Positions 1 through 10,288 of a stretch of 14,104 nt of DNA are shown here, in pieces (positions within the stretch are counted from its first letter, which is position 1; every line of letters starts with the position of its first letter). Both the position numbers and the translations under genes were made by a program. This stretch comes from Microcystaceae cyanobacterium (lineage in GTDB: Bacteria > Cyanobacteriota > Cyanobacteriia > Cyanobacteriales > Microcystaceae), in NCBI GenBank assembly GCA_041746575.1, contig JBGTGT010000065.1, positions 1 through 14,104 on the forward strand, written 5' to 3'. The notes below the pieces were generated by a model. That model was not told the DNA's origin and made no database searches. It was given only the letters and a program-made list of their open reading frames with translations.

Positions 1-139
1 CCTTTCCCTGAAAAACGACGAAATACTCCTGAGTTTTTCTTTTCTAGCAATCCTCTTATTTCTGCGTAAAGATTTTGGAGATAACCCTTTTTTAAAACTC
101 CCTTGACATCTGGCTTACAGTCTTAAGTTGTCACGAATG
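1..139 (+). mobile_element. Right end of a probable IS4-family insertion sequence (possible transposase C-terminus plus terminal inverted repeat)
   Basis: Frame 1 is open from the window edge (PFPEKRRNTPEFFFSSNPLISA*, stop 67-69). CTTAAGTTGTCACGAATG at 122-139 resembles the CTTAAGTTGACAC.AATG terminus I recall for cyanobacterial IS4-type elements. An unrelated start-less reading frame opens at 141. Family call is from recall. Confidence 0.55.
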
Positions 140-140
140 A

Positions 141-649
141 TTAACTGTAGATTCACAAATAGAGACAAATATTGAAATTTTGTATAAAAATAATCCATTA
201 AATTCATTATATAAAACGGTTTTTACTATAAGAAATGAAGGAAACGAAACGATTTCCGATATATCTTGTAATATAGAGTTTGAGGAACAAGAAGTAAATA
301 ATAGTATTTTAGAGTTCTTTGCAGAAGACAGGACAGGTAAAATACTTCAGAATTCTAATATTAATATCAACTTAACTAATAAAGGAGTAAATTTGTCTAT
401 TAATTTTTTAAATTCCTTTAGAGATTATAAGGACAAAATTTCTTTAACTATTTATTCTACTGAACCTTTGAGTGTAAAAAATGCTACAGGAGAGGTAGAG
501 GATGGGGAGTAAAATATAAAGACTACTGGAACTTAAGTCAAAAAACAGAGAAAATTGATAAAATTCTAAGTTTTTTGGGAACTGGAATTTCATTTGCATT
601 TGTATTTCTTGGAATTATCGGAATCATAATTGCTATTAGTTTGAGATAG
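141..649 (+). pseudogene. 5'-truncated, frameshifted hypothetical protein with a C-terminal transmembrane helix
   Basis: The 180..512 frame is open back to 141 (LTVDSQIETNIEILYKNN...), next to the IS end. A -1 shift near 489-503 continues RGRGWGVKYKDYWNLSQKTEKIDKILSFLGTGISFAFVFLGIIGIIIAISLR* (TAG 647-649), a clear hydrophobic tail. Confidence 0.6.
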
Positions 650-737
650 TGCGATCGCCAATCTTGTAGGGTGCATTAGATCGCTGATCTTATAGATTGC
701 AAAGCACGGAGTGTAATGCACCTTAATTAATCTATTT
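647..737 (+). repeat. Post-stop repeat element copy 1: TAG + HIP1 + GTAG REP-like inverted repeat + TTAATTAA
   Basis: GCGATCGC at 651-658. GTAG 666-669 is followed by GGTGCATTA (670-678), with its perfect complement TAATGCACC at 714-722. TTAATTAA at 723-730. 647-675 matches 1254-1282 at 24/29, and 680-737 matches 1261-1318 at 45/58, both ungapped (hand count). Confidence 0.8.
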
Positions 738-765
738 GATAACACTCTTAAGTTTAGGTTACGAT
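736..765 (+). promoter_or_regulatory. Candidate sigma70-type promoter for the antitoxin-RelE operon
   Basis: TTGATA (736-741), 18 nt spacer, TACGAT (760-765), about 35 nt upstream of ATG 800. Confidence 0.35.
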
Positions 766-799
766 AGCCTATAGACTTTATCAATTTCTATTGACTACT

Positions 800-1003
800 A
801 TGATCACTCAAGCAAAAGAACCTGAAATCGTCCTTAGAAATGGAAAACCAGTAGCAGTAATTCTCGATATTGACGTTTATCAAGAAATATTAGAAAAACT
901 TGAAGCCATCGAAGATTTAGAGATTTTAGCTAAGATGAGACAAGAAAAGCTAGAATTTCGCTCCTTAGATGATTTTCTTCACGAATATAACCCTGATGTA
1001 TAG
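800..1003 (+). CDS. Type II antitoxin, Phd/YefM-like
   Basis: PEIVLRNGKPVAVILDIDVYQEILEKLE has the Phd-type 'I..NGKP.AV' N-terminus and an acidic C-terminus. It overlaps the downstream toxin. ATG 800 is preferred over TTG 791. Confidence 0.8.
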   Translation: MITQAKEPEIVLRNGKPVAVILDIDVYQEILEKLEAIEDLEILAKMRQEKLEFRSLDDFLHEYNPDV

Positions 1004-1256
1004 CGTTTTTCTGGAAAAAAGAGCAGAACGAGATTTAAAGAAATTACCTACTGATTTATTTTATCGGATTATGCCCGTTATTCAGGCTCTAAGGAATAAT
1101 CCCAGACCGTCTGGTTGTCTTAAACTAAAAAATACCCTTCAAGATTACCGAATACGAGTAGGAGATTATCGAATTCTTTATGAATATGAAATTGATGATA
1201 AAAGTCAGGTAGTAAAAGTAATGCGGGTTAGACACAGAAGAGAAAGCTATCGTTAG
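996..1256 (+). CDS. relE: Type II toxin, RelE/ParE superfamily (RelE/StbE-like mRNA interferase)
   Basis: MYSVFLEKRAERDLKKL...NPRPSGCLKLK...YRIRVGDYRILY...VMRVRHRRESYR carries canonical RelE motifs. ATG 996 overlaps the antitoxin end. Contains an in-frame TATGAA duplication at 1179-1190. Confidence 0.9.
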   Translation: MYSVFLEKRAERDLKKLPTDLFYRIMPVIQALRNNPRPSGCLKLKNTLQDYRIRVGDYRILYEYEIDDKSQVVKVMRVRHRRESYR

Positions 1257-1318
1257 CGCAATCGCTACTCTTGTAGAGTGCAAAAATGTGCGTGTAATGC
1301 TGCTTAATTAATTTATTT
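1254..1318 (+). repeat. Post-stop repeat element copy 2 (degenerate)
   Basis: TAG-c-GCAATCGC-tactcttGTAGAGTGC...GTGTAATGC...TTAATTAA (1304-1311). It begins at the relE stop codon and aligns to copy 1. Confidence 0.8.
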
Positions 1319-1384
1319 TAGCTGATCTGTGTAGTAAAATGAAACAAGATACTAGATTTATCCTTTAAAACCTCAAAAATCATC

Positions 1385-1644
1385 ATGAATATTAAACTAA
1401 AACCTAATCAAGAACAATTTATCCAAGAACAGTTAAAAAGTGGTAGATTGAACAACGCAGAACAAGTCATTGATACTGCTTTTCATTATTAGAAAACCTC
1501 AATGAAGATTACTTACAATGGGTAGAAGAAACTCGTCAAAAAATTGATTTTGCTATAGAAGAATTAGATAAAGAAGAAGGATTATATGGAGAAACAGTTA
1601 TTAATGAAATACTCGGAAAATTTCAACAAGAAAAACACAAATAA
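1385..1644 (+). pseudogene. ParD-like (ribbon-helix-helix) antitoxin, frameshifted
   Basis: MNIKLKPNQEQFIQEQLKSGRLNNAEQVIDTAF stops at 1490-1492. A -1 shift at ~1485 continues LLENLNEDYLQWVEETRQKIDFAIEELDKEEGLYGETVINEILGKFQQEKHK* (TAA 1642-1644). The joined sequence looks like a cyanobacterial ParD and precedes a ParE start. Confidence 0.85.
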
Positions 1645-1646
1645 AC

Positions 1647-1709
1647 ATGAATCGTTATATTATCTCTCCCTCAGCAAGTCAAGATTTAAACACAATCGCT
1701 AGAAACTAA
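1647..1709 (+). pseudogene. ParE-family toxin N-terminal remnant (~18 codons)
   Basis: MNRYIISPSASQDLNTIA matches the ParE N-terminal 'Y.ISP.A..DL..I' pattern and starts 2 nt after the parD stop. Similarity ends at ACAATCGCT (1692-1700); TAA at 1707-1709. Confidence 0.8.
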
Positions 1710-1725
1710 GTTAAGATTATCTATC

Positions 1726-2142
1726 ATGTCAGCTAAAGATAAATTTCATCGTGTGGTAAAAGTTGCTTTAGAAAAAGAAGGGTGGAAAATTACAGATGAT
1801 CCCTTTTATCTTAGTTTTGGTGCGGTAGATGTCTATATTGATTTAGCCGCAAAAAAATTAATCGTAGCTGAAAAAGAAGGTCAAAAAATTGCGGTAGAAG
1901 TCAAAATTTTTCTAGGAAGCTCAACCATTTCTGATTTTCATTTAGCAGTCGGTCAATTTATCAATTATCGAACGATTTTAAATCAAAAAGATCCCAAGCG
2001 TATCCTTTACCCTGCTATCCCTTAAGCAGCTTATACGAGCTTTTTTCTGCTAGAATTTACTCAAATGATTATCAATAACTATCATCTTAAATTTATTGTC
2101 TATGATATAGAAAAGGAGGTTATTATCAAATGGCAAAACTAG
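1726..2142 (+). pseudogene. xisH: XisH-family protein with a premature stop
   Basis: MSAKDKFH...GWKITDDP...DLAA.KLI.AEK...IAVEVK...GQFINYR is XisH. After TAA 2023-2025 the same frame continues AAYTSFFLLEFTQMIINNYHLKFIVYDIEKEVIIKWQN* (TAG 2140-2142), the expected C-terminus overlapping xisI. Confidence 0.9.
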
Positions 2143-2471
2143 AACAATATCGAGACGCTATTAAAAAACTCCTATTTCAGTATGCTAATTATAAACACGC
2201 TTACGGAAACATTGAAAATCAAGTTATTTTCGATATAGAGCATGAGCATGATCATTATCAATTAGTTCATGTTGGATGGGAACAAAATACAAGGATTTAT
2301 GGTTGTTCAATTCATTTAGATATTAAAAATGATAAAATTTGGATTCAATGGAATTCAACTGATGTTGATATCGCTGAGGAATTAATTAATTTAGGTGTTC
2401 TTAGAGAGGATATCGTTTTAGGATTTCAGCCTGAATATATGCGACAATATGCAGATTATGCTGTGAGTTAG
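2130..2471 (+). CDS. xisI: XisI-family protein
   Basis: MAKLEQYR...DHYQLVHVGW...YGCSIHLDIKNDKIWIQ...IAEEL...GV..EDIVLGF..YMRQY.DYAV is the XisI signature. RBS AAGGAGG upstream. Confidence 0.93.
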   Translation: MAKLEQYRDAIKKLLFQYANYKHAYGNIENQVIFDIEHEHDHYQLVHVGWEQNTRIYGCSIHLDIKNDKIWIQWNSTDVDIAEELINLGVLREDIVLGFQPEYMRQYADYAVS

Positions 2472-2483
2472 TGATGGTAATTT

Positions 2484-2660
2484 ATGGTGATAGAAGACAA
2501 TAAACTGCAAGCAGGGAAGTTTATCAGTGAAATTGCCAAAATTTGCGGTGTTGGAGGCGGAGGTCGTCCAAATTTGGCGCAAGCAGGGGGACGAGATGCG
2601 AGTAAGTTGGATGAAGCGTTAACGGTTGCGAAAGAGAAGTTAAGGGAAGGTTTGAAATAA
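2484..2660 (+). pseudogene. alaS: Orphan 3' fragment of alanyl-tRNA synthetase (C-terminal DHHA1/C-Ala region)
   Basis: [58 protein letters not shown] (58 aa) carries the AlaRS C-terminal GGGGGRP.LAQAGG motif. No upstream alaS sequence is in the window. Confidence 0.9.
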
Positions 2661-2667
2661 GCGTTTT

Positions 2668-2693
2668 AGGGTGGGTTTTATGCTTACCTTTTT
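2668..2693 (+). terminator. Probable intrinsic terminator / degenerate REP-like hairpin after the alaS fragment
   Basis: GGTGGGT-TTTAT-GCTTACC stem with G-U pairs, followed by TTTTT, 7 nt after the stop. Confidence 0.45.
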
Positions 2694-2748
2694 GATAAAT
2701 ATTGAGTATAATTTACCTAAAAGACTAATCTAGGAATGTCTTGCAACT

Positions 2749-2916
2749 ATGATTCCATTAAAAACCTTTACTAGCGAAAAACGTCCTTGGATAGTTAATA
2801 CATTAAGAAATATGTGGAATTATATTTTTAAATATGAACAAACAAGACAGCAAGAACAAGGCACTGGTCAGTTACTGCAAAGTTATGCTTCCAGTTACAA
2901 AAACAAAATAATTTAA
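2749..2916 (+). CDS. Possible 55-aa small protein
   Basis: ATG 2749 to TAA 2914-2916 (MIPLKTFTSEKRPWIVNTLRNMWNYIFKYEQ...), with TATAAT at 2707-2712 upstream. No recognised family. Confidence 0.3.
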   Translation: MIPLKTFTSEKRPWIVNTLRNMWNYIFKYEQTRQQEQGTGQLLQSYASSYKNKII

Positions 2917-2932
2917 TCCGATTCAGATGCTA

Positions 2933-3006
2933 TGGACGTAACTGGATTCGAACCAGTGACCCCATCGATGTCAACGATGTACTCTAACCAACTGAGCTAT
3001 ACGTCC
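2933..3006 (-). tRNA. trnV: tRNA-Val(GAC)
   Basis: Reverse complement GGACGTATAGCTCAGTTGGTTAGAGTACATCGTTGACATCGATGGGGTCACTGGTTCGAATCCAGTTACGTCCA. Acceptor stem GGACGTA/TACGTCC, anticodon stem CATCG/CGATG with GAC, T-loop GGTTCGAATCC. CCA not encoded. Confidence 0.98.
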
Positions 3007-4537: not shown

Positions 4538-5551
4538 TTAAGTTACATTATTCGTCTCGCCAATCACTTCTCGTACGCGATAAATCGGTCGTTTTTGAGA
4601 TTCGTGATAGGTTCGCATCAAGATTTCTGCTAATAAGCCTAGACTAAACCATTGTACTCCGGTTACGACCAATAAAACCGCTAAAATGAGTAAAGGACGA
4701 TTTCCAATCTGTTGACCTAACCCTAATTTTAAATAGGTTAAATAAAGTCCCAAAAGAAAGCCTAATCCCATCGTTCCTAAGCCTACTATTCCAAAGACGT
4801 GCATAGGACGAGTTAAGAATTTTTTGATGAAAAAGACTGTCACCAAATCCATCAGCACTCGAATGGTGCGCCCTAATCCATATTTACTTTTGCCGTATTT
4901 TCGGGCATGGTGATTAACAGAAATTTCGGCAATTCTTGCGCCTTCAATATAAGCTAATGCAGGTAAAAAACGATGCAATTCTCCATAAAGGTTAAGGTCG
5001 GCAATTAATTCGGCTCGATAGGCTTTTAATGAACAACCATAATCGTGTAATTTGACCCCTAAAACCTGTCCAATGATCTCATTGGCAATCGCTGAAGGAA
5101 GAAGGCGAGTAATTTTGTCGTCCTGCCGATTTTGACGCCAACCACTCACTAAATCATACCCTTCATTGAGCTTATCAATTAACTTAGGAATGTCGGCCGG
5201 ATCATTTTGTAAGTCACCATCTAAAGTCACAATAATTTGACCTTTAGCGTGGTTAAATCCAGCGGCGATCGCAGGAGTTTGACCATAGTTGCGACGCAAA
5301 ATAATAGCTTTTAACGTAGGATAAATAACGGCTAATTGCTTTAAAACTACGGATGAATTATCTTGAGAACCATCATCAACAGCAATCATTTCATAGGTTA
5401 AAGATTGATGATTTAGAGTATGGGCAATTGCTTCAATTAAGAGGGGAATACTATCTTCTTCATTATAAATAGGAATGACAACGGAAACATCTATGGTTTT
5501 CCGTGCATGAGGTGGAGCCACCTGAGCATCATAATCTTGCAGTTGATTCAT
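4538..5551 (-). CDS. GT2 polyprenyl-phosphate glycosyltransferase (ArnC/GtrB/DPM synthase-like)
   Basis: SVVIPIYNEE, VDDGSQD, RNYGQTPA, LDGDLQNDP, LHDYGCSLKAYR, ELHRFLP, and two C-terminal TM helices. Confidence 0.93.
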   Translation of the reverse strand: MNQLQDYDAQVAPPHARKTIDVSVVIPIYNEEDSIPLLIEAIAHTLNHQSLTYEMIAVDDGSQDNSSVVLKQLAVIYPTLKAIILRRNYGQTPAIAAGFNHAKGQIIVTLDGDLQNDPADIPKLIDKLNEGYDLVSGWRQNRQDDKITRLLPSAIANEIIGQVLGVKLHDYGCSLKAYRAELIADLNLYGELHRFLPALAYIEGARIAEISVNHHARKYGKSKYGLGRTIRVLMDLVTVFFIKKFLTRPMHVFGIVGLGTMGLGFLLGLYLTYLKLGLGQQIGNRPLLILAVLLVVTGVQWFSLGLLAEILMRTYHESQKRPIYRVREVIGETNNVT

Positions 5552-5736
5552 CTTTAATCTCGCCTTAGGGATTTACTTTCTGTTGGCGTTAAAATTTGGT
5601 TTGATTTGTATCCCTAACCCCATTGCAATTTTTTTGAGGATGAAATCCTCGGTTTTGAGTCTTAGAAAATAAACAATCGTGAGTTGGAAAAAAGTTAATT
5701 TTATAAAATTGAAAAACGCTAAAGGGGTTATTCGAT

Positions 5737-5755
5737 TCAAATGATTATCATTATT
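5737..5755. promoter_or_regulatory. Candidate Fur-family operator
   Basis: Reverse complement AATAATGATAATCATTTGA matches the classical Fur box GATAATGATAATCATTATC at 15/19 (15 contiguous). It lies in a divergent intergenic region. Confidence 0.4.
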
Positions 5756-5919
5756 TACGATACCATAAATGATACGGTCTGACTAGCACAAACTTAAAGG
5801 TCACAAAATTAGGTAAAAATTTATCCTCAAAAATATTTTGTATAATCGTGCCGTTTTCTCAAGAGTAGGTTAAAATGACAAAAAAATGTATATTCTAGGT
5901 AAAAACGGTTGCTCCTCCA

Positions 5920-6615
5920 ATGACGAACTCTAAAGGCTATTTTCAGTATTTTAACTTCGGGCTAGGCCAATTAATTGACCGCACTTTGTCTAAGAAAAGG
6001 AGAGAAATTTTTCATTGTTTTCTTAAAGAAATGACGCCAGAAGAAACAGATACTATTCTAGACATAGGAGTTTCTGACGAAGATCATCCTTCGTCTAATA
6101 TGTTTGAAAAACTCTATCCCTATCCTCATAGAATAACAGCCGTAGGGATTGATAATTTTAACCATCTGGAGAAAATCTATCCGGGTTTAACCTTTGTTCA
6201 AGCAGATGGCAGAATGCTTCCTTTTCCAGACCAGACGTTTGATTATGTCTATTCCCATGCTGTTCTTGAGCATACAGGTTCAAGAGAATTACAACTAAAA
6301 TTTTTAAAAGAAGCCTTTCGAGTCGCCATTAAAGGGGTTTTTATGACAACGCCTAATCGCTCCCATCCTATTGAATTTCACACTGCCCTTCCCCTACTTC
6401 ATTATCTTCCTCATTCGTGGTATCGCAAAATTTATCGGTTATTAGGAAAACGCTTCTATTCAACTGAAGAGAATCTCAATCTTTTAACGGCTAAAGAGTT
6501 ATTCACTCTAGCTGAATGCTTATCTAATGAGAAAGTAAATTACAAAATAAGAGACACTAAATTTCTTTTCTTTAGTGCCAATTTAATTCTCATTCTTAAA
6601 CGCTCAATGTTTTAA
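5920..6615 (+). CDS. Class I SAM-dependent methyltransferase
   Basis: ILDIGV (motif I), QADGRMLPFPDQTFDYVYSHAVLEH, FMTTPNR..PIE.HT.LP. Confidence 0.9.
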   Translation: MTNSKGYFQYFNFGLGQLIDRTLSKKRREIFHCFLKEMTPEETDTILDIGVSDEDHPSSNMFEKLYPYPHRITAVGIDNFNHLEKIYPGLTFVQADGRMLPFPDQTFDYVYSHAVLEHTGSRELQLKFLKEAFRVAIKGVFMTTPNRSHPIEFHTALPLLHYLPHSWYRKIYRLLGKRFYSTEENLNLLTAKELFTLAECLSNEKVNYKIRDTKFLFFSANLILILKRSMF

Positions 6616-7611
6616 AAATTTTTGATTAGATGGGTAAGCTAAATAAGCCATACGTTTCAATTCTTTTCGGCCTCGTGCGACGGAATCTAAAATGAGTCCA
6701 CAAGTGAAACTGAGGAAAGCTAAAAGCATAATAGAAGCAGACAACATGGCAGTCGGAAAGCGAGGAACTAAACCTGTTTTCAAGTAAGTCGCTAGTAAGG
6801 GTAAACCCAGACCTAAAGAAAGACTGGCTAAAATGAAAGAGACAATACTAAAGAACAGAAAAGGTTTAACTTCTTTAAATAATAAAATAGAGGTTCCCAG
6901 AACGCGCCATCCATCCGAAAACGTTCTTAGTTTACTTTCTGAGCCATCAGGTCGTTCGCCGTACAAGGTTGGTTCTTCTGCGAAAGGTATCTTTAATTCT
7001 AGTGCATGAACGGTTAGCTCTGTTTCAATTTCAAAACCACTTGATAAAGCAGGAAAAGACTTGACAAAACGTTTAGAAAACACCCGATATCCTGATAACA
7101 TATCTTTGAGTTTTGCCCCAAATAACAACTTAACCACACTGGTTAAAAATAAGTTACCAAATTGATGGCCAGGGCGATAGGCTTTAGTGGCATGAGAAGC
7201 AATACGGCGAACCCCAACCACCATATCTAATCGTTCTTGTAACAAACGTTGAATTAAGCGGGACACTGCGCTAGGTTCGTAAGTATTATCGCCATCAATA
7301 AGTATATAAATATCTGCCTCAATATCGGCAAACATTCGACGGACAACATTTCCTTTACCCGGTTGAAATTCATGACAAACAATTGCCCCTGCTAATTGAG
7401 CTTTTTCTGCAGTATCGTCGCTGGAGCGATTATCATAAACGTAGATTTTAGCGTGGGATAATTCGGTCTGAAAATCTTGGACAACCTGAGCGATGGTTAA
7501 ACTTTCATTACGGCAGGGAACAATGACCGCAATTTCGTAATGATGAAGATGAAGGGCAATATTTGAGCCAGTCTTAAGGGTATCTAACATAAATAAGGAT
7601 TGAAAATACAA
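6604..7611 (-). CDS. GT2 glycosyltransferase (DPM1/polyprenol-phosphate type)
   Basis: IAVIVPCRNE, YDNRSSD, GKGNVVR, IDGDNTY, DMLSGYR, GFEIETE, and two C-terminal TM helices. The start may be a downstream Met. Confidence 0.93.
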   Translation of the reverse strand: MYFQSLFMLDTLKTGSNIALHLHHYEIAVIVPCRNESLTIAQVVQDFQTELSHAKIYVYDNRSSDDTAEKAQLAGAIVCHEFQPGKGNVVRRMFADIEADIYILIDGDNTYEPSAVSRLIQRLLQERLDMVVGVRRIASHATKAYRPGHQFGNLFLTSVVKLLFGAKLKDMLSGYRVFSKRFVKSFPALSSGFEIETELTVHALELKIPFAEEPTLYGERPDGSESKLRTFSDGWRVLGTSILLFKEVKPFLFFSIVSFILASLSLGLGLPLLATYLKTGLVPRFPTAMLSASIMLLAFLSFTCGLILDSVARGRKELKRMAYLAYPSNQKFLKH

Positions 7612-7614
7612 TGT

Positions 7615-8766
7615 TTAAGGTTGAACAGGGGTTTTAAGTTGTTCTTGTTGAATTTCTTGAACCCATTGAGCGTCTTTAGCATTATTGCGTCGCCAAAGTT
7701 TCCCTTTTTGACGAATCGATAACAATGTTTGTTCAATATTATCTGGCGTTAATAAAACACCAAAATCGGAAGGCACGGGGACATCATTAAGATTAAAAAT
7801 ACGAGCAAGAACAAGCCTTCCCGTCTGGGGCGTATAATGATGGTTATCAATATAGTTGATCATCTTATTACTGACCGGCTCTTGAGTAATTGAATTATAT
7901 CCCGAAAAATCCCAGATAGTAGGTTTAATTTTTACTAATTCTCGCTTCCACTGTTCAAAATCGTCCCACAAATTGCGCAGATGAAGCATTTCGTTGTGGG
8001 TGGCGTGGGTAGGAGAAATGAAAAGATATAACTCAATATTATTTTGCTCACACAATTCTACAATTTTTTTGAGATTATTTAACTTCTCAGAGGAAAGAGC
8101 ATAATCTTTAAACCAACTTTCTGTTTGTCCTAGAAATGTAGATAACCAAGAATGGAATTTCTCGCGGGTTGTTTGTCTTTCGGGATACTCAGCGTATTGT
8201 AAATTATATTTGAGAGTTTCATAACTCGATTCAGTTGCATCTAAAGAAACAGAAGCACTCATTAAGTCAGTGATAGGAAAAGGATTGTTCTTTCTCTCCT
8301 CCCAAAAAGAAATATGCTCTTTGAGAGCTGCAGTGGTTGTAAACATATAAAAATCTAGTCCAAGAATGACTCGTTTTAAATGATGATTTTTATCCTGTTT
8401 AATGGTATGTTCTAATTGTAATCTAATTTCATCTATATGAGCGGCGTGTAGTCCCCCATTGTAAGCCTCTTTAAAAGGGGGTAAGTTCATTTGATCAATG
8501 TCCATTCCCTCAATCATTCTAGAAGAGCCGAGAAAAATCGTAGAAGGAGTATGATGGCTTAAATAAATATACTTTGAGAGACGACCATGGGTAAACAATT
8601 CTGGCTTTAGCCGGTTGAAACGGACAATTTGTGGCGTTAAAAAAATGTCATAAGGATCAACCAGTATATTAATTAAACCAACCAATCCCAACCCACTTAA
8701 TGTAGAACAAAAAATGCCTAAAATAAATCGTTTATAGCTATCACTTTCCTGCTTTTTTTTCATCAT
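7615..8766 (-). CDS. Membrane-anchored SGNH-like protein, probable extracytoplasmic partner of the MBOAT acyltransferase
   Basis: N-terminal TM helix followed by DPY. IFLGSSR is a block I Ser candidate and YIDNHHY a DxxH candidate. It lies 7 nt downstream of the MBOAT gene. Confidence 0.65.
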   Translation of the reverse strand: MMKKKQESDSYKRFILGIFCSTLSGLGLVGLINILVDPYDIFLTPQIVRFNRLKPELFTHGRLSKYIYLSHHTPSTIFLGSSRMIEGMDIDQMNLPPFKEAYNGGLHAAHIDEIRLQLEHTIKQDKNHHLKRVILGLDFYMFTTTAALKEHISFWEERKNNPFPITDLMSASVSLDATESSYETLKYNLQYAEYPERQTTREKFHSWLSTFLGQTESWFKDYALSSEKLNNLKKIVELCEQNNIELYLFISPTHATHNEMLHLRNLWDDFEQWKRELVKIKPTIWDFSGYNSITQEPVSNKMINYIDNHHYTPQTGRLVLARIFNLNDVPVPSDFGVLLTPDNIEQTLLSIRQKGKLWRRNNAKDAQWVQEIQQEQLKTPVQP

Positions 8767-8773
8767 TTTTTAT

Positions 8774-10288
8774 TTAAAATTGGAAATACAAAAATTCAGA
8801 AACTTTGTTAAGAGAAAGCAAGGAAAAACTAGCCATTAGACCAATGCCAATTGCCCACCACCAAGTCGGTTTAAGCTTGGTTACTATTTGCTGACTATTT
8901 GGCAAGGTTAGGGTACATAAAGTCAGTAGCATTAAGCCAAAAATAGCGATAGATTTTTGGTTAAATAAAGTGGGTAGATAGGGAAATTCGGTCCAAGTTT
9001 TAAGGTTGATACCCAACGCAGTCAGCACAGATAGCTTTCCATTAGGATTTCCCACCGGCAGAATAATCCCTTCCATTCCTAGCATTGTTTTAATGATATC
9101 AAATGCTTCGCTGAAGCGACTGGCTCTAAATAAAACCCAACTCAAAAGTACGGCCAAAAAAGTAATCAGCCATGCTAAAAATTTGGGTAAAGGCATCTTT
9201 AATTTGCGCCAAGCATGATGAATAGATAAAAATAAACCATGTAAGCCACCCCAAATTACATAAGTCCAACCTGCGCCATGCCATAATCCTCCTAATAACA
9301 TCGTTATAAGTAAGTTAAGATAGCGACGAAACTCTCCTTGACGACTTCCCCCTAAGGGGATGTATAGGTAGTCTCTCAAAAAGTTAGATAGAGTGATATG
9401 CCAGCGTCGCCAAAAATCACTGATAGAAGTGGCCTTATAAGGGGAATCAAAGTTAATAGGGAGCTTAATATTAAACATTAAGCCTAACCCAATAGCCATG
9501 TCAGAATAGCCCGAAAAATCAAAGTAAAGCTGTAATGTGTAACTGAGTGCGCCCACCCAAGCTTCGGTAAAGTTTAAGGATTCTGCATTATTAAAAGCTA
9601 AGGCAACCCAAGGAGAAATGGTGTCGGCGATTAAGACTTTTTTCGATAAACCAATGATAAATGTAGCTAATCCTAAGGCAAAATTTTTGTGATTAAAAAT
9701 AAAATTTCGTAAGTTATAAAATTGGGGAATGAGTTCGTCATGTCGCAAAATAGGACCGGCAATTAATTGAGGAAAAAAGGTTACAAATAAGCTATAGGTT
9801 AGAAGATCATAGGATTTATTTTTGGTTTCGCCTCGGTAAGCATCTACAAGATAAGCAATTTGGGTAAAGGTATAAAAAGAAATTCCAAGCGGTAAGACAA
9901 TTTGGCCAAGAGATAAGGTTATTCCTGTTAATCCTTGTAGAGAAGATAGAAAGAAGTTTGCATATTTGTAGTAGCCAATTAATAATAAGTTTAAACTCGT
10001 ACCAATCAATAATAATGTTTTTGCTTTTTTACTTTTTAATTTACATTCAGTAATCCATTGTCCTATTTGATGATTCATGACCACAGACAGAACAATAAGA
10101 ATAAAATAATGAGGCGTTGGCGTTTGTCCTTCTGGCGGAAAAAAATTCCAATAACTGTAGAACACAAAGGAGGCAATGGTTAACCAAATAACAGACGCTT
10201 GGATAAAACGAAAGCGAGTTAAACTAAAGAAACCTACCAAAGTGATGGGTAGGAAAAGAAAAATAAAAATGTATGAGTTAAATAACAT
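8774..10288 (-). CDS. MBOAT-family O-acyltransferase (AlgI/DltB/PatA-like)
   Basis: MLFNSY.F, LPLGISFYTF, FPQLIAGPI, YFDFSGYSDMAIG, FWRRWHITLS, GGLWHGAGW (catalytic His), terminal FLYFQF. Confidence 0.95.
   Translation of the reverse strand: MLFNSYIFIFLFLPITLVGFFSLTRFRFIQASVIWLTIASFVFYSYWNFFPPEGQTPTPHYFILIVLSVVMNHQIGQWITECKLKSKKAKTLLLIGTSLNLLLIGYYKYANFFLSSLQGLTGITLSLGQIVLPLGISFYTFTQIAYLVDAYRGETKNKSYDLLTYSLFVTFFPQLIAGPILRHDELIPQFYNLRNFIFNHKNFALGLATFIIGLSKKVLIADTISPWVALAFNNAESLNFTEAWVGALSYTLQLYFDFSGYSDMAIGLGLMFNIKLPINFDSPYKATSISDFWRRWHITLSNFLRDYLYIPLGGSRQGEFRRYLNLLITMLLGGLWHGAGWTYVIWGGLHGLFLSIHHAWRKLKMPLPKFLAWLITFLAVLLSWVLFRASRFSEAFDIIKTMLGMEGIILPVGNPNGKLSVLTALGINLKTWTEFPYLPTLFNQKSIAIFGLMLLTLCTLTLPNSQQIVTKLKPTWWWAIGIGLMASFSLLSLNKVSEFLYFQF

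Follow-up and report, generated by a model that had tools for sequence, protein, structure and literature searches.

A stretch of 14,104 nucleotides from a Microcystaceae cyanobacterium (contig JBGTGT010000065.1 of GenBank assembly GCA_041746575.1), referred to below as the window, carries a string of small gene modules between the end of an insertion sequence (IS) and a duplicated 3' end of alaS (Table 1). A membrane-gene remnant, a Phd-RelE pair, a ParD-ParE pair and an XisH-XisI pair follow one another, and a composite repeat built around a repetitive extragenic palindrome (REP) stands at the first two boundaries. The array exemplifies an arrangement widespread in cyanobacteria, in which exchangeable gene blocks lie between such repeats, and it behaves like a store of cassettes supplied through short portable homologies. 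It is probably, though far from certainly, a decayed accretion array, formed by repeats seeded by a REP-associated tyrosine transposase (RAYT) and by homologous recombination through such homologies, with no local integrase.

The four modules and their common orientation had been recognized in an earlier reading of the letters alone (the original prediction) and are confirmed, but four of the seven cargo genes (the membrane gene, parD, parE and xisH) are broken, and the membrane gene is both cut by the IS end (1-139) and frameshifted. The window was also said to lack an integrase, and indeed no integrase open reading frame (ORF) or recombinase was found within it. The third boundary had been assigned an 8-mer like the highly iterated palindrome HIP1. 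These bases (1692-1699) are parE coding sequence, homologues differ there and homology ends at 1692-1700, so the 8-mer is a truncation mark and not a repeat.

The first two boundaries do share a repeat, as predicted (58 nt, 680-737 and 1261-1318, 78% identity between copies), and it does contain HIP1 and a REP. Both belong to a composite unit, here called the leader-REP, that consists of AG, T, HIP1, 7 nt, GTAG and a bulged REP hairpin. GTAG before an imperfect hairpin, together with the association with RAYT genes in relatives, places the unit among GTAG-type REPs of TnpA-REP subclass 2.2. When folding was compared with shuffled sequences, the window copies and the post-alaS hairpin did no better (z -0.9, -0.6 and +0.1) and intact leader-REPs of congeners did better (z -1.9 and -2.6). 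The window copies are decayed.

The 5' edge of the repeat is sharp. At 111 distinct sites across all loci examined, HIP1 is preceded by A at -3 (86%), G at -2 (86%) and T at -1 (83%); position -4 is unconstrained, and there is no conservation further 5'. AG occupies -3/-2 at 90 of the 111 leader sites; for other HIP1 sites the counts are 289 of 2898 in these loci and 250 of 3559 in the window's genome. On the opposite strand this AG reads CT, the dinucleotide at which Escherichia coli TnpA-REP cleaves, 5' or 3' of the REP (PMC8266576). The leader edge may therefore be a RAYT cut site. In 35 of the 111 sites the AG forms part of a TAG, which helps account for placement after stop codons, and REP ends often provide TAG stops according to Di Nocera et al. 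(PMC3733652). Both window copies take a TAG stop as their AG, in line with the predicted post-stop repeats, but the repeats equally head the downstream module.

The window takes up all of contig C65 of its genome, G000 (4.2 Mb, 40% GC, 1780 HIP1 sites), which is compared below with its congeners G001 and G002, the latter a sister species whose genome is 77% complete. The public runs listed as bearing the window are hot-spring metagenomes, with no RNA run among them. Contigs from two of them, X1 and X2 (a possible source), cover 112-2606 in one piece with 0 differences, and those of a third, X4, cover parts of that span with identical letters where they do. No contig end in G000 pairs with the window IS end by target duplication. 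The cargo has 31% GC, compared with 45% for genes beyond tRNA-Val. No homologue of the membrane gene was found among longer proteins, which is weak evidence. At 4538-10288 lie what we take to be glycosyltransferase, methyltransferase and MBOAT-like acyltransferase genes, unrelated to the array.

Table 1. Features of the window, in order of position
Feature	Position	Strand	Remarks
IS end, multicopy; contig break	1..139	-	sequence common to four other contig ends
Gene remnant with C-terminal hydrophobic anchor	141..649	+	5' part lost at IS; frameshift near 509; TAG stop 647-649; no Pfam family
Leader-REP 1	648..737	+	AG 648-649; HIP1 651-658; 7 nt; GTAG 666-669; AT-rich tail last
Leader-REP 1 hairpin	left arm 670-678, right arm 713-722	+	loop contains second partial leader
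Phd/YefM antitoxin, intact	791..1003	+	PF02604
RelE/ParE-family toxin, intact	996..1256	+	PF05016; TAG stop provides AG of leader 2
Leader-REP 2, decayed	1255..1318	+	AG 1255-1256; one-mismatch HIP1 1258-1265; GTAG 1273-1276
parD antitoxin, frameshifted near 1485	1385..1644	+	TIGR02606, below cut-off
parE 5' stub, 20 codons	1647..1709	+	homology stops at 1692-1700
xisH, premature stop 2023-2025	1726..2142	+	PF08814
xisI, intact	2130..2471	+	PF08869
Duplicated alaS 3' end, last 175 nt	2486..2660	+	DHHA1; 91% identical to intact gene on C125; frame open
Decayed copy of hairpin following intact alaS	2661..2695	+	within duplicated segment
tRNA-Val(GAC)	2933..3006	-	flank only; no alaS linkage in relatives examined

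Distribution and cargo of the leader-REP

An exact 21-base motif of the repeat occurs at 127 sites in 54 of 301 genomes of the order (reversed control, 0), with few exact copies (1-8) per genome. A profile made from eight copies, five of which come from G000 and match by construction, gave 25 matches in that genome at E <=10, 11 of them below 0.01, clustered on short contigs rich in toxin-antitoxin (TA) genes.

The leader-REP flanks a RAYT gene in G001, G002, G012, G069, G152 and G258. Five RAYT proteins that were scanned score 187-208 with NF047646 (cut-off 80), and in both congeners the genes whose 3' end bears the repeat pass the NCBIfam RAYT model. The protein at locus L154 has DHFH and YIHYNP motifs, close to the tabulation for subclass 2.2 (PMC6006769). 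Among 40 motif-positive and 40 motif-negative genomes, hand-picked from the 301, RAYT matches were found in 28 and 11, respectively (p 3e-4, kin not being independent). RAYT co-occurrence, which the original prediction proposed to check, is thus found in relatives and not in G000. Loci L195 and L196 hold the same RAYT locus (96% identical), with the leader AG abutted by an ApeA N-terminal-domain gene in one and by DUF6602 in the other.

Neighbouring sites within 5 kb are co-oriented in 15 of 16 pairs. In 20 regions chosen for holding such pairs or other matches, copies bracket XisHI, HicAB and other TA-like pairs, Uma2-like genes and RAYT; the HicAB family is confirmed, and several of the other gene names are presumed from sequence. 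An XisHI pair unrelated to that of the window is bracketed by leader-REPs in G114. No leader was found directly upstream of homologues of the window xisH in 26 loci. In an unselected set of 30 loci, 29 with downstream ORFs, the next two ORFs include a TA, XisHI, Uma2 or RAYT gene at 14 of the 29 sites (six TA or TA-like, three XisHI, three Uma2, two RAYT) versus 1 of 30 control gaps, or 2 if DUF29 is included (p 6e-5); the gaps all lie upstream of alaS, partly in related genomes, and so may understate background TA density.

Comparison of copies points to duplication around cargo. Identity of at least 70% extends beyond the hairpin in 12 of 21 within-locus pairs, compared with 1 of 25 between-locus pairs of one genome, and is found upstream of the AG in only 1 of the 21. 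This likeness past the hairpin amounts to a duplication that starts at the leader, with the cargo between its two copies.

Two modules of the window recur elsewhere with repeats attached. The Phd-RelE segment (710-1262) is present at another G002 site with decayed repeats at both ends. The leader and parDE match G075, from another genus, exactly from base 1255, including the one-mismatch HIP1 of leader-REP 2, and the upstream gene differs. The suggestion that modules are gained and lost by recombination at short HIP1/REP sites agrees with the travel of these two, but not with boundary 3. Module order, put forward for comparison among relatives, differs in the sister species.

Other repeats also separate such modules. 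In G002:C151:311-2624 (L047), a long GTAG-type REP of a different sort, present in five copies, separates BrnT, YafQ-RelB, HicAB and HicB modules. In G000:C103:1070-4263 (L362), five co-oriented promoter-like segments of ~100 bp, four of them after a decayed REP, separate small TA-like modules. Copies related to this segment are found at C97:6976-7695, upstream of what we assume is a gnd-like gene.

The alaS tail and other gene-tail duplications

The alaS tail differs from the intact gene at 16 of 175 bases, 11 of the 16 at third codon positions (p 0.004). Such a bias suggests that most of the divergence arose while the sequence was part of a functional allele, which speaks for replacement of an allele by incoming DNA rather than for a duplication made on the spot. 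On C125 the intact gene is followed by a small gene, a second tail of 81 nt and, at the contig end, the start of an IS, presumably IS630-like. As to a possible link of C125 with the window through their IS ends, the IS types differ, an IS stands at the end of each contig, and no run contig spans the two. An in-frame ATG at window 2484-2486 could give a 58-aa DHHA1 fragment; the G002 copy of the tail has an internal stop, which speaks against a function for it.

The array had been thought to end in the alaS tail and a terminator-like hairpin, and to be anchored and closed there. The tail is real, but the hairpin is decayed, and in G002 the same xisI-tail junction stands mid-array, with three repeats, Tox-PL-2, HigB and a Phd fragment beyond it. 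Leader-REP arrays of relatives sit at many unrelated genes. The alaS-to-tRNA-Val interval, proposed as the frame for comparison, is not conserved: tRNA-Val is near alaS at 0 of the best 80 of 474 alaS-like loci surveyed in relatives, 53 of them with at least 5 kb downstream, and in G014 and G016 it lies beside a DprA-like gene, away from alaS.

Downstream tails were found at 4 of these best 80 loci, plus one orphan tail, and that of L134 encloses HicAB; at 75 loci, distant ones, alaS ends without a second copy within the DNA examined. The 5' ends of the tails all differ (-175, -81, -184, -31, -139 and -345 relative to the stop). A site-specific integrative element at the gene 3' end was rejected on this absence of a constant attachment point, and on that of a recombinase in the window. 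Also rejected was a CT/AG or HIP1 rule at the 5' junctions of gene tails, which some follow (L066 and L083; HIP1 in C55 and near L134) and the window does not. In L141 (stop +34), the GTAG of the REP behind the intact gene is the exact end point of the duplicated tail.

Tail duplication is not confined to alaS. Six genes of G000 have their own tail within 15 kb downstream and 0 have one upstream; one of the six cases (C73) is a repetitive protein family. Further gene-cargo-tail duplications lie on C55, C113, C40, C101 and C124 of G000 and at G002:C151:7761-8717. An aspartyl-protease pair lies within the duplication of an AAA_26 (bioD-like) gene, DCC1 within that of an mfd-like gene and a Uma2-like gene within that of a DprA-like gene; a hydrolase and the C101 gene also have duplicated tails, and an ABC-ATPase tail precedes an MNT-HEPN pair. 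An array in G063 was dropped from this group, with one tail copy only in the stretch examined. Direct duplications of >30 bp enclose cargo with no mobile-element gene at the first alaS tail, on C125, and at L134 and L141. The varied 5' ends and the tails of other genes argue for long target duplication of a general kind at the alaS tail, and against a site specific to alaS.

Origin of the array

These patterns could be produced by repeat spread followed by recombination. A subclass-2.2 RAYT, present in relatives but lost here, would have spread the unit of HIP1-containing leader and GTAG-REP by joining it at CT dinucleotides. As these are AG on the coding strand, the unit would often land at TAG stops. 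Small cargo would then enter with the repeat and some downstream DNA duplicated around it (X-D-cargo-D-Y), a pattern that is visible in the sequences even if the enzyme is conjectural. The simplest route would be for like repeats, on DNA that is incoming or circular, to undergo homologous recombination. The alaS tail may have arisen in the same way, D here being a gene end and the spare end a second allele beside the cargo. Finally, cargo between direct repeats would be readily deleted and, since TA pairs penalise their own loss, TA pairs would be what remains. In G000 the process appears to have run down, with repeats eroded, most cargo broken and the locus cut by ISs.

Several results weigh against this accretion model. 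Only two of the four window junctions carry the repeat, 9 of the 21 within-locus pairs have nothing in common past the hairpin, and a leader-REP lies directly at the module 5' end in 0 of 14 more distant parDE or Phd-RelE homologue loci (L169-L182). In the arrays of genus g11, 6 of 24 shared cargo blocks (three distinct modules) start at a leader and 17 elsewhere, and their far ends follow no rule. No RAYT was detected in G000, which has no Y1 match and only a 22% tblastn match to the L154-type protein. No strain-level empty site of the window was found in a sample with no conspecific strain. The control gaps and the C73 case, with the limits given above, count on the same side.

Alternatively, RAYT itself might excise and insert single-stranded circles of leader-REP plus cargo at CT, a HUH-nuclease cassette system of which the window would be a fossil. 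The leader edge falls on the TnpA-REP cut dinucleotide (PMC8266576), at 11 of the 111 sites a leader has gone into the AG of a pre-existing GTAG, and genomes have up to five RAYT matches. Moreover, G069 and G071 share a RAYT module (91% identical) whose surroundings differ between them and which runs from the leader to a CT past an inverted REP, and gene sequestration by TnpA-REP was already proposed in 2012 (PMC3333891). However, homologous recombination between repeat copies gives the same apparent edge, so alignments cannot separate RAYT capture from recombination by any enzyme. Neither cargo far ends nor gene-tail 5' ends show a consistent CT/AG, and 12 of the 40 motif-positive genomes have no RAYT match. 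It is possible, but rather unlikely, that a group-2 RAYT, with CT fixed by the HIP1-containing leader, captures, stacks and exchanges cargo as an undescribed integron-like system. Only as tentatively could one attribute to such a system a cargo of TA, XisHI and nuclease genes and RAYT itself, lying between co-oriented REPs even inside true integron arrays. Passive co-accumulation, in which REPs, TA genes, ISs and gene fragments gather independently in dispensable regions and the repeats are mere markers, seems improbable. It fits the decay of the window copies, the copies that follow housekeeping genes with no TA beside them, the 15 of 29 sites with no TA, XisHI, Uma2 or RAYT match downstream and the TAG stops often given by REP ends (PMC3733652), but leaves unexplained both the local duplications from AG past the hairpin and the same HIP1 variant with parDE in another genus.

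The original prediction favoured an integron-like platform, and a detached cassette array served in trans by an integron integrase is the least credible reading and very improbable. G000 does encode a full IntI on C126 (TIGR02249, 471 bits), with a divergent array in which a single attC-like site is followed by a leader-REP and an IS (C126:1-9000; L363 and L002). But a rule-based scan that recovered the C126 site and those in L301, L303 and L304 found 0 attC-like sites in window 1-2950, on both strands, and 0 in the G002 array. The C126 array continues into C104, paired with it by IS target duplication, which rules out the window as its continuation. IntI has no match in G002, at its 77% completeness, and the one match in G001 is weak and generic. 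G000 has another intI piece, a broken one, on C120. With no attC and no linked IntI or attI, the window array does not appear to belong to the integrons or integrase-less cassette arrays. The architecture imagined in the prediction exists in relatives, but the window has no attC. In genus g11, a 218-bp tail duplication of a FUSC-like gene encloses intI, an attI-like junction and an array of 3.5-11.6 kb (8 genomes mapped), in which leader-REP modules and attC-like sites are interleaved within a real integron (G012:C1:2421899-2426164, L223; L300-L306). The array is hypervariable, and intI is intact in some genomes and truncated in others.

Comparison with known systems

Integrons and integrase-less cassette arrays are tandem series of small modules, enriched in TA genes and variable in content and order. 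The window array shares these traits, but it has no attC, attI or linked IntI, its repeat heads the module, and related arrays hold modules in both orientations. Such accretion would also explain how TA-rich clusters form in cyanobacteria without the help of an integrase. By itself the window is a decayed example, and its value is the family to which it points. In the literature searched, no description was found of HIP1-led REPs that bracket TA genes or serve as a module boundary; an earlier description is possible. The spread of REPs and the benefit of RAYTs to their hosts have been called unresolved (PMC8266576), as has the role of HIP1 (PMC5861425). The leader-REP is a ready substrate for both questions: its edge is exact to the base at the known TnpA-REP cut dinucleotide, and it combines a constant HIP1 leader with a cognate enzyme and with whole genes as cargo.

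Other cyanobacterial repeats and transposases offer partial parallels. TnpA-REP near prochlorosin genes is likewise a cyanobacterial RAYT and has been proposed to diversify neighbouring genes, but it belongs to subclass 2.1, no repeat boundary is defined in the part of the report available, and its authors find no strong evidence for causation (bioRxiv 10.1101/2020.03.09.984088). SDR5 repeats at HIP1 sites (Elhai 2008, as cited in PMC5861425) are reported to be confined to Nostocaceae; compared by description only, they are small and HIP1-associated like the leader-REP, and in that source they are not reported as a cargo boundary. The GTAG-15/16 REPs of cyanobacteria (PMC3733652) are likened here by description, not by consensus sequence.

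The leader-REP has its GTAG foot and bulged hairpin in common with REPs, bacterial interspersed mosaic elements (BIMEs) and REPtrons that have a subclass-2.2 (group 2) TnpA-REP/RAYT (PMC3333891, PMC8266576 and PMC6006769), and its GTAG-plus-stem start matches one subclass-2.2 consensus row (PMC6006769). REPtrons also share inverted dimers beside the RAYT gene and a CT-compatible edge. Unlike REPs and BIMEs as described there, the unit has a fixed HIP1-containing leader, 1-8 exact copies per genome and co-oriented copies that bracket whole genes; here the sites of RAYT modules vary, whereas the REPtrons of E. coli reportedly do not move as a unit. Insertion with long target duplication was described in 2010 by Furuta, Abe and Kobayashi in Microcystis and other organisms (PMC2853133). 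It similarly leaves cargo between the two copies of a long direct repeat of variable extent, and no mobile-element gene is present. There the cargo is restriction-modification and the duplication is attributed to DNA breaks; here the cargo is TA or XisHI, and what is duplicated is a gene tail or a leader-REP.

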